A stretch of DNA of 18,753 bases from IMG/VR virus record IMGVR_UViG_2698536576_000004. The stretch is one strand, 5' to 3'. The DNA is from a virus. Its lineage: Duplodnaviria > Heunggongvirae > Uroviricota > Caudoviricetes. The notes under the pieces were generated by a model. That model was given only the letters and a program-made list of their open reading frames with translations. It made no database searches and had not been told where the DNA came from. The position numbers were made by a program, and so were the translations under genes. Below, in pieces: positions 4,751 to 17,155 of this stretch (positions within the stretch are counted from its first letter, which is position 1; every line of letters starts with the position of its first letter).

Positions 4751-4809
4751 TAAAAACGGCGGCAGAGCAGTCACGGAGTAAAACTGATACCGCCAAACGT
4801 CACCAGAAA
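4751..4809 (-). ncRNA. dicF: DicF small RNA (ftsZ-targeting sRNA of the dicB operon) with intrinsic terminator hairpin
   Basis: Minus strand reads 5'-TTTCTGGTGACGTTTGGCGGTATCAGTTTTACTCCGTGACTGCTCTGCCGCCGTTTTT-3', essentially identical to the DicF sequence as I remember it, including the GGCGG...GCCGCC stem and U-run. Ends approximate to +/-3 nt. Confidence 0.85.
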
Positions 4810-6404: not shown

Positions 6405-6453
6405 TTGACTTGAGATTCCTTGAGTGATTAGCATTGAGAAAACTCAATATTGG
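6405..6453. promoter_or_regulatory. Divergent dicA/dicC control region: candidate dicC promoter plus DicA operator
   Basis: TTGACT (6405-6410), 17-bp spacer, TTAGCA (6428-6433) as a weak -10. Palindrome TTGAGAAAACTCAA at 6434-6447 plus additional TTGAG half-sites at 6409-6425. Confidence 0.45.
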
Positions 6454-6688: not shown

Positions 6689-7193
6689 ACAGGCTCGTGA
6701 GGCTCTGGATGCTTGGATATGTCGACCAGGAATGACACAGGAGCAGGCGACGATATTAATCACTGAAGCATTCTGGGCTTTGAAAGAGCGCCCGAACATC
6801 GATGTTCAGCGTGTCACAGATGAAGGTGGCGCGGTTGATCAGCGAGCGCTTGGCGTTAATCGAGTGAAGATATTCGAACGCTGGAAGGCTATCGACACCA
6901 GGGATAAGCGTGAAAAGTTCACGGCGCTAGTGCCTGCAATTATGGAGGCTATCCGGATTAATGATTTCAGGTTGTATCGTGAAATTAGTGACGGAAAAAG
7001 CATCACGTACATGATCGCCGGGTTAAACAAAGAATATGGCGATGTGGTGGAGTCCGGACTGCTTTTTGCTGATCCTGCCGTAGTGGATCGTGAAACTGAC
7101 GAACTTATAGAAAAAGCAATTGCTTTCAAACTTGCGTATCGACAGCAATACCAACAAAAAGCTGGATGGAATTATGAGCCTTCTTTTTGCTGA
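6672..7193 (+). CDS. YdaT-like protein (functional CII-position protein of Rac/CP-933P-type prophages)
   Basis: 173-aa ORF overlapping the dicC 3' end by 17 nt. Position right after the Cro-like gene and loose similarity to YdaT; assignment from memory, moderate. Confidence 0.55.
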   Translation: MKITPEQAREALDAWICRPGMTQEQATILITEAFWALKERPNIDVQRVTDEGGAVDQRALGVNRVKIFERWKAIDTRDKREKFTALVPAIMEAIRINDFRLYREISDGKSITYMIAGLNKEYGDVVESGLLFADPAVVDRETDELIEKAIAFKLAYRQQYQQKAGWNYEPSFC

Positions 7194-8139
7194 ACGCCCA
7201 CTGGTTATAAACACACAGCTTGCGATGAAGATTGGCTTAAATGAAGCCATTGTGTTGCAGCAGTTGCATTACTGGTTGAGAGATACCAATTCCGGCATGG
7301 AATGTGATGGTGTTCGCTGGATTTACAACACAACGGAACAATGGCTGGAACAGTTCCCATTCTGGTCAGAGTCAACGTTAAAGCGCGCGTTTGCAAGTCT
7401 GAAAACGCTGGGGCTTTTGCGTTGTGAAAAGCTCAATAAATCAAAGCGCGATATGACCAATTTCTACACGATTAACTATGGGAGCGAGCTTTTAGATGAT
7501 GGCAAATTGAGCGAATCCATCGGTTCAAAATGCGCCGCTCCATCAGGTCAAAATGACACGATGGAAGAGGTCAAAATGAAACGCTCCATTGGTTCAAAAC
7601 GACCCAATGTCATCGGGTCAAAATGGCCTGATGATCTTACAGAGAATACAACAGAGATTACTACAGAGAATAAAAACACTTTTCGTCCGGAAGCTTCGCA
7701 ATCGGACCCGCAGACAGCTGAACAGAATTATTTAACCCAATATCCTGACGCGGTGGTTTTCAGTGCTAACAAACGTCAGTGGGGGAATCAGGAGGATTTG
7801 GCGTGTGCGCAATGGATCTGGGCACGAATCGTGAGCCTTTACGAACAGGCCGCCAGTGATGATGGCGAGATCATGCGACCAAAAGAGCCTAACTGGACTG
7901 CCTGGGCTAATGACGTGCGCACAATGCGGATGCTGGATGGCAGAAGCCATAAACAAATTTGCGAAATGTTTGGTCGGGTTCAGCGAGATCCATTCTGGGT
8001 AAAAAACATCATGAGCCCTTCAAAGCTCCGCGAAAAATGGGATGAACTGGTCATTCGCCTGGGGCGTTCACCTGTACAGCGTTGTGTGAATCATATTTCT
8101 GAGCCGGACAGCGAAATTCCACCGGGATTCAGGGGGTAG
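7174..8139 (+). CDS. Phage replication initiator/replisome organizer with DnaT-like C-terminal domain
   Basis: N-terminal wHTH-like 'LVINTQLAMKIGLNEAIVLQQLHYWL'. C-terminus '...ISEPDSEIPPGFRG' closely resembles the E. coli DnaT (primosomal protein I) C-terminus as recalled. Contains an internal iteron array. Start at ATG 7174 chosen; the ORF is open from 7120 (TTG). Confidence 0.8.
   Translation: MSLLFAERPLVINTQLAMKIGLNEAIVLQQLHYWLRDTNSGMECDGVRWIYNTTEQWLEQFPFWSESTLKRAFASLKTLGLLRCEKLNKSKRDMTNFYTINYGSELLDDGKLSESIGSKCAAPSGQNDTMEEVKMKRSIGSKRPNVIGSKWPDDLTENTTEITTENKNTFRPEASQSDPQTAEQNYLTQYPDAVVFSANKRQWGNQEDLACAQWIWARIVSLYEQAASDDGEIMRPKEPNWTAWANDVRTMRMLDGRSHKQICEMFGRVQRDPFWVKNIMSPSKLREKWDELVIRLGRSPVQRCVNHISEPDSEIPPGFRG
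7522..7626. repeat. Iteron-like direct repeats (GG(T)TCAAAA(T)G x5, 22-26 bp period) inside the replication gene; putative ori
   Basis: Copies at 7522, 7546, 7569, 7591 and 7617, followed by an A/T-rich segment with ACAGAGA(A/T)TA x3 (7640-7675). Architecture parallels ori-lambda inside gene O. Gives the protein its repeated 'IGSK' motif. Confidence 0.6.
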
Positions 8140-8141
8140 GT

Positions 8142-8354
8142 ATGCACAGCAGTAATCAACAGGCCGCAATCCAGCATTTGCTGGAGAACGGGGAAGCCAC
8201 GTTCCGGGAGCTGGCTGATGCTCTTGGTGTGACCAACAAGAAAATTCAAAACCTGCTCCAGAACATACAGCGGTACGGGCAGCTTGTGCGGGAGGGGAAA
8301 AAATATCGGCTGGTACCGAACTGGCAGGAAAAATCTGCATTGCAAAAGCGGTAA
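8142..8354 (+). CDS. Hypothetical small protein, possible winged-helix DNA-binding fold
   Basis: 70-aa ORF. ATG at 8142 three nt after the replication-gene stop, with GGGGG/AGG SD. Sequence 'FRELADALGVTNKKIQNLLQNIQRYGQLVREGKKYRLV' looks HTH-like. Confidence 0.6.
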   Translation: MHSSNQQAAIQHLLENGEATFRELADALGVTNKKIQNLLQNIQRYGQLVREGKKYRLVPNWQEKSALQKR

Positions 8355-8603
8355 CCGAAAGGTCAACAGCGTCGAAACAGGCTGCGGCGCAGGAATGTCG
8401 CCGGAACAGCAACGGATACCAGAGACAAAAAATTTTGGGGAGTAGTCGGGGAGTCGGTAACAGAGCTTAGGTAGAGCAATTGATGCCAACTGACCTCTAA
8501 CGTTTTGTTTCATGTTGTCATTATGTTTCAATTTAGTGGAATTGTTAATAAAATGTTTTTATAATTAAAAACCAAACTACAGATAGCATGGAGCTTTTGT
8601 TCA

Positions 8604-10160
8604 ATGAATGCCTATAAATTCAGAAATAATGATGAGATTGGAAAATTAGAGGCGGAAACTGATTCTTATCTTGATGCTTGTTTTTATGAGTCCAATGTTT
8701 TTAAAGGTATTGTGAATTTTGACTCTACTGAGAAGAATCCTGATTTTACAAGAAGAATTATTGTTGGAAGAACAGGAAGCGGTAAGTCTGCGTTGCTTAA
8801 AAAAATATTAGACAAAGGAAATATTAAGCTGCATGACACAATAGAGGCAGAAAATACGATATTTGAACATATTAATAACAATGTGTTTATATCTGATTTG
8901 ATCTCGAAAGGGATAGATTTACGTGGGTTTTATAAATCGTTATGGCTGCATGTATTACTTATGAAAGTTATACCAGCCGTTTATCGTTCTTCCTATCAAA
9001 GCTTTTTTGAGGAAATTAAAGATCTTATTGGTGGTAAGAAGAAACCGTATAAACCAGAAGTTGCGAATGATTATATTGAACAATTTAAAGAAAATTTCTT
9101 CAATGATAAAGCGCTCATTGAAATAAGTAACAAGCTTGAAAGTGATTTGTCATTCAAACTCGGAAATTCCGCTGTTGGTGTGGGTGGTAAAATATCTAAT
9201 TCTGATACAGCCAAAATACAATCAGAAACTTCAAGTTATGTGAGTCGTGAACTTCTTTTTAAACAAAAAGAACTTATTAAAATACTTAAAGAGGAGTTCG
9301 CTGACTCAAACCAGGTTAGAATAGTAATCAGTATCGATGATTTAGATAAATCTTGGTTAAGCACGAGCGCCATCAGATATGACTTTATTAATGCTCTTCT
9401 TGAGGCCTTTCGAGAATTATTAGATATAAAGTCGGTTAAGGTTCTGATATCAATAAGAACAGATATTTTAATGGGAATTTATAAAAGTAGTTTAAGGCAG
9501 GATGAGAAAGATCAATCTTTAATATATTCCATATCATGGAATAAAACGGAAATAAGAGAGATTATTGATGCTAGAATTAACCATTTGGTTAAAAATAGAT
9601 ATCAATCAAATAAGTCTGTATTAATGAAGGATATTTTTAATTTTACAGTTGAAGGTATTGGAGCAGATGATTATATCCTTGACAGAACAATGCTTAGGCC
9701 TAGAGATGCAATTAATTTCGTAAATATATGTCTTTCTGAGTGCGATGGTATGGTTAACATGAATGAAAATATTGTGTTAATTGCCGAAGAGAAATTTTAT
9801 TCATCCAGAAAGAGAGCTTTGGTTACAGAATGGAAAAGCATATATCCGTTTATCGAAGAATATTTGGATGTGCTTTCCTTGATTTCATTTTCTGATTTTA
9901 CAGTCTCAAACATAGGACAAGCAGTAAAAGATGATATATCGCAGCATTTACTTGATAGATTGACTGTAGTTAAAGAGGATGATCAACATACAAAAATATT
10001 GATGAATTTTGAGGAGTTACTTAAAGTCTGGTTCGTCGTAGGCGTGGTTGGCATAAGGAAAACAGCATCTTTAATTATATATTCATCTTTTGATAAACCT
10101 AATTTGGATATTACTGATATGAAGAGAGATTTTGTAATACATCCGTTGTTTGATAGGTAA
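8604..10160 (+). CDS. P-loop NTPase, 518 aa, KAP-like Walker motifs; AT-rich cargo gene, candidate defense/abortive-infection protein
   Basis: Walker A 'GRTGSGKS' (nt 8766-8789). Walker B-like 'RIVISIDDLDK' (IDDLD at nt 9333-9347), resembling the KAP-family hhhhDDLDR. Possible Arg motif 'LRPRDAINF'. Markedly lower GC than flanking genes (by eye, not computed). Preceded by an AT-rich promoter-like region (8500-8600). Confidence 0.85.
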   Translation: MNAYKFRNNDEIGKLEAETDSYLDACFYESNVFKGIVNFDSTEKNPDFTRRIIVGRTGSGKSALLKKILDKGNIKLHDTIEAENTIFEHINNNVFISDLISKGIDLRGFYKSLWLHVLLMKVIPAVYRSSYQSFFEEIKDLIGGKKKPYKPEVANDYIEQFKENFFNDKALIEISNKLESDLSFKLGNSAVGVGGKISNSDTAKIQSETSSYVSRELLFKQKELIKILKEEFADSNQVRIVISIDDLDKSWLSTSAIRYDFINALLEAFRELLDIKSVKVLISIRTDILMGIYKSSLRQDEKDQSLIYSISWNKTEIREIIDARINHLVKNRYQSNKSVLMKDIFNFTVEGIGADDYILDRTMLRPRDAINFVNICLSECDGMVNMNENIVLIAEEKFYSSRKRALVTEWKSIYPFIEEYLDVLSLISFSDFTVSNIGQAVKDDISQHLLDRLTVVKEDDQHTKILMNFEELLKVWFVVGVVGIRKTASLIIYSSFDKPNLDITDMKRDFVIHPLFDR

Positions 10161-10390
10161 TAGCAATGTGAATATGTTGAGACTACTGGAAAAGCTATAA
10201 CTCCTTTAGTAAAGTTTCCGTGGGTGCTTGAGGCTATCTGTCTCAGGCATGAACACCAAAGGCAGATAGAGAAAAGCCCCAGTTAACATTACGCGTCCTG
10301 CAAGACGCTTAACATTAATCTGAGGCCAATTTCATGCTAGACACATGTAGGTTAGCCTCTTACGTGCCGAAAGGCAAGGAGAAGCAGGCT

Positions 10391-10546
10391 ATGAAGCAGC
10401 AAAAGGCGATGTTAATCGCCCTGATCGTCATCTGTTTAACCGTCATAGTGACGGCACTGGTAACGAGGAAAGACCTTTGCGAGGTACGAATCCGAACCGG
10501 CCAGACGGAGGTCGCTGTCTTCACAGCTTACGAACCTGAGGAGTAA
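10391..10546 (+). CDS. hokD: Hok/Gef-family membrane toxin (HokD/RelF-type)
   Basis: 'MKQQKAMLIALIVICLTVIVTALVTRKDLCEVRIRTGQTEVAVFTAYEPEE', 51 aa, matches HokD/RelF as recalled. SD AAGGAGAAG upstream. In-frame upstream extension from 10334 not annotated separately. Confidence 0.9.
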   Translation: MKQQKAMLIALIVICLTVIVTALVTRKDLCEVRIRTGQTEVAVFTAYEPEE

Positions 10547-13684: not shown

Positions 13685-13851
13685 GACTGCGTCGGTTTGA
13701 AGAACAGACGATATACGAAGTAGTTTACTAAAGCAGTTCTCATTTCAGGTGTTATTCACTTATTCCTTCTTTGAGTCTCTCCAATTAAGTACGAAGTCGT
13801 TTCTGTTATGCAAACCATTTATGCCGAAAGGCTCAAGTTAAGGAATGTAGA

Positions 13852-14067
13852 ATGTCAAATAAAATGACTGGTTTAGTAAAATGGTTTAACGCTGATAAAG
13901 GTTTCGGCTTTATTTCTCCTGTTGATGGTAGTAAAGATGTGTTTGTGCATTTTTCTGCGATTCAGAATGATAATTATCGAACCTTATTTGAAGGTCAAAA
14001 GGTTACCTTCTCTATAGAGAGTGGTGCTAAAGGTCCTGCAGCAGCAAATGTCATCATTACTGATTAA
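13852..14067 (+). CDS. cspB: Cold-shock protein (CspA family), CspB-like
   Basis: '[38 protein letters not shown]...' with RNP1 'KGFGFI' and RNP2 'VFVHF' motifs. 71 aa. AAGGA SD 7 nt upstream. Confidence 0.9.
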
Positions 14068-14348
14068 AATTCATCGCTCGTCTGTATACGATAACGAAGA
14101 AGGCTGATGCCTGAGTAGAGATACGGACAGAGTAGTGAATATTGGATCTCTTTAATAAAAAGTAAGGAGGTCCAATACATGAAACAATGGCTAGCATATT
14201 TGGCAAAATCTTAATCAGGAAAAGTATGCTAACCATTGTGGTGAAGTGCAGGTTTGCTGCATGAATAGTTTTACAGCAGAAGCTAACTGCTGGCATGGCA
14301 AAACAAAGTGCGTAAGTGGATGACTCCCACAAAAAGCACCACAATCTC

Positions 14349-16586: not shown

Positions 16587-16737
16587 GGTGTTCTGGTTTG
16601 TTACAAATTTATCTGAAGCAGTCATTGTTATAATTTTATTATTTGTACCTCTTGAGATTTCCTTGTTGGTTTTTCTCTCTGATATTTTTTTTCGGACCAT
16701 TCTGCCCAAGGGCTAATTTCTTCAAAAGGTAATAATT

Positions 16738-16950
16738 ATGTCTAACAAAATGACTGGTTTAGTGAAATGGTTTAACCCTGAAAAAGGTTTTGGTTTCATC
16801 ACGCCGAAAGATGGCAGCAAAGATGTGTTTGTCCATTTCTCAGCAATTCAGAGCAACGATTTCAAAACATTAACTGAGAATCAGGAAGTTGAATTTGGTA
16901 TTGAGAACGGACCTAAAGGTCCTGCCGCTGTTCATGTAGTGGCGCTTTGA
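16738..16950 (+). CDS. cspI: Cold-shock protein (CspA family), CspI-like
   Basis: '[70 protein letters not shown]', 70 aa, with RNP1/RNP2 motifs. AAGGT SD 7 nt upstream. Confidence 0.9.
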
Positions 16951-17155
16951 GGTAGACAATATTACAAACCATATTCACTTTAGATGCCCGTGTTGTCATG
17001 GTTCCCAGTATAGAACATCATCTTTTGATGTTTCTGACATGAATCCTTTCGGGGCAAAATGTATCTTTTGTAAATCAATGATGATTACATTTGATAATAT
17101 TTCACAATACTTAAATGCCAGCCGTCTGTCGTTGGATTTAAAAAAGTGAAAATGA

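Follow-up and report, generated by a model that had tools for sequence, protein, structure and literature searches.

A probable lambda-type replication origin embedded in the O-like initiator gene of a lambdoid Escherichia coli prophage

The DNA studied here, an 18,753-nucleotide (nt) stretch of a tailed-phage record (IMG/VR IMGVR_UViG_2698536576_000004; Caudoviricetes) referred to below as the window, belongs to a lambdoid prophage residing in the E. coli chromosome and represents its early region. A cI-type repressor gene on the minus strand, a P22-Cro-type gene, a cII/YdaT-like gene and an 'O-like' replication initiator gene follow one another, and the window also carries int, xis, a RecE-like exonuclease gene, Q and lysis genes. 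The initiator gene contains an array of direct repeats (iterons) followed by a block of three 12-mers, which together probably form the replication origin of the prophage. The features of this gene are listed below; protein domains were delimited on an AlphaFold 2 (AF2) model, with its predicted local distance difference test (pLDDT) scores.

7174-8139, plus strand: replication initiator gene, O-like, 321 amino acids (ATG at 7174, stop codon at 8137-8139).
7201-7497, plus strand: predicted N-terminal winged-helix DNA-binding domain, about residues 10-108 (AF2 element order H-H-E-E-H-H-E-E, pLDDT 65-88).
7498-7779, plus strand: predicted disordered linker, residues 109-202, holding the whole putative origin (AF2 pLDDT below 50 at residues 109-189 and 191-202).
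7495-7517, plus strand: degenerate iteron 0, GATGATGGCAAATTGAGCGAATC, in register 23 bp 5' of iteron 1.
7518-7540, plus strand: iteron 1, CATCGGTTCAAAATGCGCCGCTC, codon phase 2, encoding SIGSK.
7541-7563, plus strand: iteron 2, CATCAGGTCAAAATGACACGATG, codon phase 1, encoding SGQN; 16 of 23 positions self-complementary.
7564-7586, plus strand: iteron 3, GAAGAGGTCAAAATGAAACGCTC, codon phase 0, encoding EEVKM.
7587-7609, plus strand: iteron 4, CATTGGTTCAAAACGACCCAATG, codon phase 2, encoding SIGSK.
7611-7633, plus strand: iteron 5, CATCGGGTCAAAATGGCCTGATG, codon phase 2, encoding VIGSK; adjoins the putative unwinding segment.
7633-7636, no strand: GATC (Dam site) at the junction of iteron 5 and the first 12-mer, read from the sequence.
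7639-7674, plus strand: three tandem 12-mers, ACAGAGAATACA, ACAGAGATTACT and ACAGAGAATAAA, a putative DNA-unwinding element.
7780-8061, plus strand: helical C-terminal domain, residues 203-296, homologous to lambda O (AF2 helices 206-295).
8074-8136, plus strand: C-terminal tail, residues 301-321, VQRCVNHISEPDSEIPPGFRG, similar to the final 21 residues of E. coli DnaT.

A repeat search of the window places five copies of a 23-nt unit at 7518, 7541, 7564, 7587 and 7611, spanning 7518-7633 with start-to-start distances of 23, 23, 23 and 24 nt, and Tandem Repeats Finder (TRF) returns the same array with a period of 23. An initial annotation had put five copies at 7522, 7546, 7569, 7591 and 7617; these positions agree with ours to within 1 nt, but the copies stand in register at a period of 23-24 nt, not at the 22-26 nt then given. 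The 23-bp consensus, CATCGGGTCAAAATGACCCGATG, is a near-perfect palindrome, being its own reverse complement save for the central A run (CATCGGGTCA-AAA-TGACCCGATG). Its 10-nt core, GGTCAAAATG, has eight sites in the window with at most one mismatch, four of them inside the array, while dinucleotide shuffles at the same mismatch level gave a mean of 2.1, a maximum of 6 and never 8. The position of iteron 0 is occupied by a good GGTCAAAGTG copy in three relatives (L003, L004 and L017).

Directly behind the iterons, the initial annotation had noticed an A/T-rich stretch with three ACAGAGA(A/T)TA repeats, and this description is borne out: the motif starts at 7639, 7651 and 7663 and has one further, unrelated site in the window, where 0.07 sites are expected by chance. 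Between 7620 and 7679 the GC content goes down to 0.33 and the AT skew reaches +0.45, a strong excess of A on the top strand. The 40-mer at 7637-7676 is the least stable of the gene (free energy, dG, -44.3, against a mean of -54.5 and a standard deviation of 3.2). These physical properties fit an unwinding element.

The junction GATC is kept in 14 of 16 aligned enterobacterial homologues (from Escherichia, Klebsiella, Citrobacter, Enterobacter, Raoultella, Izhakiella, Xenorhabdus, Morganella, Providencia, Trabulsiella and Edwardsiella). It resembles the GATC that begins the 13-mers of E. coli oriC, and the likeness to oriC is one of working arrangement: three head-to-tail AT-rich repeats of 12-13 nt beside the initiator sites, starting at a GATC. 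The oriC 13-mers and the 12-mers of the window are, however, unrelated in sequence beyond their AT-richness, and the window element has no DnaA boxes and lies inside a coding region.

Is the periodicity compatible with a repeated peptide linker or a structured RNA, with no role for the DNA duplex? The protein does contain IGSK three times (residues 116-119, 139-142 and 147-150) and TEnT three times, and palindromic units could form hairpins. However, a period of 23 does not divide into whole codons, which spreads the copies over three reading frames: iterons 1 to 5 have codon phases 2, 1, 0, 2 and 2, and their peptides differ. The earlier statement that the repeats impose IGSK on the linker therefore holds for three of the five copies, while the other two give SGQN and EEVKM. 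Mean pairwise identities at codon positions 1, 2 and 3 among the 16 homologues are as follows:

N-terminal domain: 0.76, 0.86 and 0.47.
Iteron cores: 0.78, 0.86 and 0.82.
12-mers: 0.98, 0.79 and 0.92.
90 nt 3' of the 12-mers: 0.43, 0.44 and 0.37 (overall 0.41).

Iterons and 12-mers thus stand out by their nucleotide conservation from surroundings that are nearly free to vary as protein, with synonymous sites more conserved than in the folded domain. The use of three codon phases, the high identity at third positions and the conserved position of the array argue for a function of the repeats as DNA.

The 12-mers of more distant relatives, described below, show the same inversion. Of the 167 copies that are in frame, 130 have ACA as their first codon and 37 a non-synonymous variant (CCA, TCA, GCA or other), with no ACT, ACC or ACG; the second codon is GAG in 147 and a non-synonymous variant (AAG, GAT or GAC) in 20, with no GAA. 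The absence of synonymous variants is informative because the search would have accepted a variant with one mismatch. In several Firmicute loci the first 12-mer starts 11 nt from the second and is consequently translated in a different frame, giving RDY and not TET, but retains the DNA motif. The three reading frames and the inverted pattern of synonymous and non-synonymous changes contradict a repeat acting at the protein level. A structured RNA or single-stranded DNA was rejected too, with no Rfam match in the gene and an unremarkable folding energy (z-score only -1.6). Taken as a whole, an explanation by peptide or RNA is very unlikely.

The initiator matches the phage family phrog_391, 'replication initiation O-like', over residues 17-321 (E = 3.4e-91) and is 95% identical to the initiators of the isolated phage HannyBb and of mEp460-type phages. 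It has no Pfam family match and, beyond its tail, no NCBIfam match; membership in Pfam Phage_rep_O, RepA_N (PF06970) or DnaD_N was tried and found no match, and no PADLOC match makes it a defence-system protein. A homologue is present in 2791 of 5426 complete E. coli genomes, at 80% or more query coverage in 1849, and is mostly annotated as 'hypothetical protein'.

The DNA-binding domain expected at the N-terminus is indeed predicted by AF2, as a winged helix-turn-helix (wHTH), but it is not of the lambda O (Phage_rep_O) type: lambda O matches Phage_rep_O (PF04492) at 5.7e-36 and the window protein does not. The domain matches phrog_6493, 'DnaD-like' (E = 1.5e-36), and the best Foldseek hits of its model are the N-terminal domain of staphylococcal plasmid RepA_N proteins and a Rep-DNA complex (4pql, 5kbj and 4pt7), with further wHTH proteins and the DnaD N-terminal domain 2v79 ranking next. 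The array, taken as 7495-7674, encodes residues 108-167, between the predicted wHTH and helical domains, so the pattern of order and disorder in the AF2 model suggests that the origin DNA encodes the start of a disordered linker. The C-terminal half is of lambda O kind: residues 147-294 align by BLASTP with residues 135-270 of lambda O (33% identity over 148 residues, E = 7e-27), the matches to phrog_2357 and phrog_277 fall in the C-terminal part of the initiator, and lambda O itself matches the C-terminal part of phrog_391.

We scanned one genome per species and obtained 80 loci encoding relatives of the N-terminal domain, in Enterobacteria, Pseudomonas, Photobacterium, Acinetobacter, Comamonas, Staphylococcus, Bacillus and lactobacilli; 77 of them were tested for phased arrays. 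Within nt 281-520 of the gene, 59 of the 77 hold an 8-mer repeated at least three times at intervals of about 23 bp or multiples of it, and 41 hold at least four copies. Controls gave 3 of 77 for the N-domain region, 0 of 75 further downstream and 1 of 77 for shuffled sequences. The initial annotation had proposed comparing repeat conservation with coding drift, and both measures now point the same way: the repeats are conserved in homologous genes (59 of 77 loci), and third-position identities are 0.82 and 0.92 in the repeats against 0.47. The core varies by lineage while the pattern GGnCAAAwTGnCC is kept: GGTCAAAATGACC in E. coli and one Staphylococcus caprae locus, GGGCAAATTGCCC, GTGCAAATTGCAC and GGACAAATTGTCC in Pantoea, Pseudomonas and Comamonas, and GGATCAAAATGATCC in Limosilactobacillus.

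Some host labels in this collection should be read with care. Three contigs from metagenome-assembled genomes labelled Bacillota, Veillonella and Collinsella (L009, L012 and L065) are 94-100% identical to the E. coli gene, and the loci from Nocardioides and Micromonospora (L056 and L057) are identical to each other and close to the S. caprae locus (L053). All five probably reflect bin or culture contamination rather than true hosts.

The 12-mers behave differently from the iterons. The motif nCAGAGAnTAC lies behind the last iteron, in two to five tandem copies, in about 60 of the scanned loci, Firmicutes among them, and in 176 copies from 59 loci the positions outside those used for selection are conserved as well (T9 0.94, A10 0.88, C11 0.80). 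A blastn search with the 51-nt block found stretches 85-97% identical in initiator genes of Klebsiella, Erwinia, Acinetobacter, Pseudomonas, Staphylococcus, Bacillus and Geobacillus phages. An exact search of viral contigs for two adjacent 12-mers gave at least 120 matches, of which 77 were scored and 3 more lay too close to a contig end. Among the matches listed (the 77 scored), nearly all 12-mer pairs lie 440-620 nt into an open reading frame (ORF) of about 900-1100 nt and are preceded by 23-bp-phased repeats, with at least ten unrelated core sequences. By these comparisons, the iteron core changes with the initiator lineage while the 12-mer block stays constant. That nucleotide conservation of the 12-mers should span E. 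coli to Bacillus and Staphylococcus phages, beside many iteron types, is less expected. We also considered whether the 12-mers are tied to the lambda-O-like C-terminal domain, for example as its single-stranded DNA site, and rejected this: they occur in 36 of 46 loci with the domain and 28 of 37 without it (Fisher p = 0.8).

The repeats could alternatively be initiator-binding sites used mainly for control, through autoregulation, copy-number handcuffing or exclusion of related phages, with the true start of replication elsewhere in the prophage. The array does lie within a transcribed early operon, and elsewhere such repeats have control effects: iterons of plasmids take part in handcuffing, and related phages are inhibited by cloned fragments of lambda ori (PMC5397158, PMC3349717, PMC4488673). 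Two observations make this improbable: the TRF scan found no second iteron-like array in the 18.7-kb window, and iterons are constantly paired with the 12-mer block, A-rich and the least stable segment, an arrangement typical of origins and not of operators. Control and origin roles are, besides, compatible with each other.

Mosaicism and recombination at the locus follow the same boundaries. Klebsiella phages have the N-terminal domain, iterons and 12-mers in common with the window (79% nucleotide identity), but immediately behind the origin their genes continue with a different C-terminal part. This switch point is the mosaic joint to be expected if N-terminal domain and iterons form one specificity unit. 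The Shigella phage VIT_AJPSC (L006, 2627-2790) has a phrog_391 initiator with an HTH_36 N-terminal domain and 15-bp repeats, TCAAAATCTGACCCG, and no 12-mers by our search criteria; it shows a second origin layout joined to the same C-terminal domain and DnaT-like tail.

A natural 290-residue variant of the initiator has lost exactly 93 bp (23+23+23+24) in frame between iterons 1 and 5. It is seen in an E. coli prophage (L209, 1807-1930; GCA_054853035.1; proteins P0017-P0023), where iteron 1 is fused to iteron 5. The deletion matches recombination between iterons, and deletions between iterons are also what lambda ori- mutants carry. The variant retains the 12-mers and one good iteron, iteron 5, so this prophage is probably crippled in its origin.

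Such a fate may be asked about for the window as well: its origin could be of a functional type but a relic in a defective prophage, no longer firing. The window is a chromosomal prophage, with a 100% match in E. coli strain LH85-a; related prophages carry the 93-bp deletion, and a rare ATPase cassette is inserted just downstream. On the other hand, a single substitution, in iteron 4, separates the array from its otherwise essentially identical HannyBb counterpart; the initiator still has an intact ORF and, as said, 95% identity; int, xis, cI, cro, Q and lysis genes are present; and no lesion points to inactivity. We therefore regard a relic as unlikely.

The closest known system is the origin of lambda and its relatives. 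In P27/lambda-type origins, iterons and an A-rich segment lie in the middle of the initiator gene and transcription helps opening (PMC7466680). As in ori-lambda and the O genes of lambda and of the Stx phages P27 and 933W, the origin proposed here lies mid-gene and comprises four to six dyad-symmetric tandem iterons spaced by 20-24 bp, with the A-rich segment on their C-terminal side. The lambda spacing is 20, 24 and 23 bp, against 23, 23, 23 and 24 in the window, and the annotated lambda iterons are palindromic too. Both iteron cores hold TCAAAAyG, the C-terminal domains are homologous, and the early operon has the same order of cI, cro, a cII-like gene and the initiator. The likeness to ori-lambda asserted by the initial annotation thus appears well founded, every architectural feature that sequence can test being present. 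There are differences as well. The N-terminal DNA-binding domain belongs to another family than that of lambda O, the iteron arms are CATCGGGTCA in the window and TCCCTC in lambda, and the A-rich segment consists of three exact 12-mers and not of lambda sequence. Downstream there is no P gene, a 70-residue wHTH gene and an Sll1717-family ATPase gene standing there instead, and the initiator carries a DnaT-like tail.

Origins embedded in the rep genes of RepA_N plasmids provide a second comparison. In pSK41 Rep, a winged-helix N-terminal domain of about 120 residues binds four repeats central in the rep gene, the origin DNA encodes a dispensable central linker, and the C-terminal domain contacts host primosome proteins (PMC5703833). 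The window gene shares with these plasmids an origin DNA that encodes an inter-domain linker, and N-terminal domains of the pSK41 type are its best fold matches. It differs in belonging to a phage and not a plasmid, in having no Pfam RepA_N match and in its lambda-O-like C-terminal domain, and the fold match itself is weak (E about 0.01).

Dyad-symmetric iterons about two helical turns apart, their location in a linker within the gene, the adjacent meltable segment and the lambda-O-like C-terminal domain lead us to a lambda-type origin. Judged from sequence, and with a probability of roughly 0.8, the array and 12-mers are the vegetative (theta-type) replication origin of this lambdoid E. coli prophage, placed inside its own initiator gene as in ori-lambda.

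The observed anatomy, DNA-level constraint and modular co-variation allow a mechanism to be proposed. Dimers of the N-terminal winged-helix domain would bind the palindromic iterons and build a wrapped, O-some-like nucleoprotein complex. Strain from this complex, probably together with rightward transcription from a promoter on the cro side, as deduced from lambda (PMC7466680), would open the 12-mer block. A pR-like promoter candidate at 6405-6434 on the plus strand, picked out solely by its consensus (9 of 12 matches), would express the initiator together with cro and the cII/YdaT-like gene, and transcription from it would then cross the origin. The lambda-O-like C-terminal domain and the DnaT-like tail would finally bring in the host replicative helicase. 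The phage encodes no helicase or loader, and recruitment would therefore most likely proceed via host DnaB-DnaC or the PriA/DnaT restart machinery.

The initial annotation spoke of a DnaT-like C-terminal domain. What resembles DnaT is the last 21 residues; the domain itself is lambda-O-like, and a full-length DnaT or DnaT-like domain was rejected, these 21 residues alone matching. The protein ends in VNHISEPDSEIPPGFRG, and the tail is near-identical in pattern to the end of E. coli DnaT (VN-ISEPDS-IPPGFRG), whereas the rest of the window protein is a predicted origin-binding initiator. A phmmer search of the PDB with the tail finds 2ru8_A, 6aep_A and 9zbt_D (DnaT 159-179) at E-values of 0.006-0.017, and the NCBIfam DnaT model is matched at positions 160-179 only (17.3 bits, against a cut-off of 201); AF2 models the tail with low confidence. 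DnaT is thought to recruit DnaB/DnaC and docks on PriA (PMC13377028). A fusion of an O-like HTH with the C-terminal motif of DnaT is known as DopC (PMC5509034).

A tblastn search of the 10.6 kb that follow the initiator found no gene for lambda P and none resembling DnaC or DnaB. The window has no helicase or loader gene, and the annotation of the complete HannyBb genome lists none either; there, the identical module is the sole annotated replication gene. We surveyed tails and downstream partners at 58 initiator loci (L001-L061), with the following outcome:

Tail of DnaT-like type (...IPxGFRG): no lambda-P, DnaC-like or DnaB-like gene in 28 of 28 loci, over about 1.4-10.6 kb downstream (mostly about 2.5 kb).
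Tail ...SGFSEQDYG..W: IstB/DnaC-like and DnaB-like genes downstream in 6 of 6 loci.
Tail ...WENTL: lambda P family gene (PF06992, 1e-57) downstream in 2 of 2 loci.

The link between a DnaT-like tail and the absence of a partner has a Fisher p of 6.5e-8, uncorrected for relatedness. This apparent association with the absence of a loader is less expected. As the type of tail predicts the downstream partner, the tail is likely to be a partner-selection module, and in this phage it probably contacts the host protein that normally binds DnaT.

Several points weigh against a lambda-type origin that works in this way. The N-terminal domain has no sequence similarity to that of lambda O detectable by Pfam or BLASTP, its Foldseek E-values are weak (0.01-0.2) and suggestive only, and the overall confidence of the AF2 model is low (mean pLDDT 58, from a 19-sequence alignment). 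We infer the helicase-recruitment step entirely, because a P-like partner is missing, and a binding partner or function of the extreme C-terminal tail of DnaT was not found in the literature covered. The present prophage copy, too, could be inactive though the module is functional in related phages.

A broader reading, which we consider possible but somewhat doubtful, would make nCAGAGAnTAC a sequence-specific, host-independent element for origin opening or for helicase or primase entry. It would be a functional counterpart of the oriC 13-mers or the DnaA-trios, common to many initiator lineages from Proteobacteria to Firmicutes whatever their iteron or C-terminal domain type. The DnaT-like tail, in modules without a loader, would then plug the initiator directly into the host partner of the DnaT C-terminus.

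The surroundings of the initiator gene call for a few separate remarks. Directly 3' of it, 8142-8354 (plus strand) encodes a 70-residue winged-helix protein, where most relatives have a DUF977 or PerC-type protein of 133-148 residues; its similarity to the HannyBb protein is marginal (23% identity, E = 0.006). Next comes a 518-residue P-loop ATPase of the Sll1717 family (8604-10160, plus strand; NCBIfam 6e-53; Pfam KAP NTPase), with an AT-rich stretch upstream (8480-8600). It matches an 'anti-phage protein' model weakly and has no PADLOC match. The 2.1-kb ATPase stretch, inserted behind the replication module, is full-length in only 10 of 5426 E. coli genomes, and the ATPase is a candidate defence moron. 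Rfam models further identify the DicF small RNA (4757-4808, minus strand), the sok antitoxin RNA (10222-10396, plus strand) with a hok/mok-like ORF at 10334-10546, and two cspA-type thermoregulator leaders (13691-14083 and 16592-16977, both plus strand).

Systems of this kind are textbook matter, from ori-lambda to the origins embedded in RepA_N plasmid rep genes. As far as the literature covered shows, the present initiator and origin lineage is apparently uncharacterised: we found no report of the mEp460/HannyBb origin or of the 12-mer strings in a phage context, in a search that left older subscription papers outside its coverage and is no proof of novelty.

Once the gene is recognised as an initiator that harbours an origin, a replication module can be assigned to these prophages, and a defined fragment becomes available for mini-replicons or origin-based interference. 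Comparison across the family separates a variable recognition part, the iterons, from a constant part, the 12-mers. Should a conserved factor of host or phage recognise this constant part, such modules would offer a simple system for studying origin opening and helicase loading without a dedicated loader, and the association between tail and loader provides a genetic handle on the function of the DnaT C-terminus.

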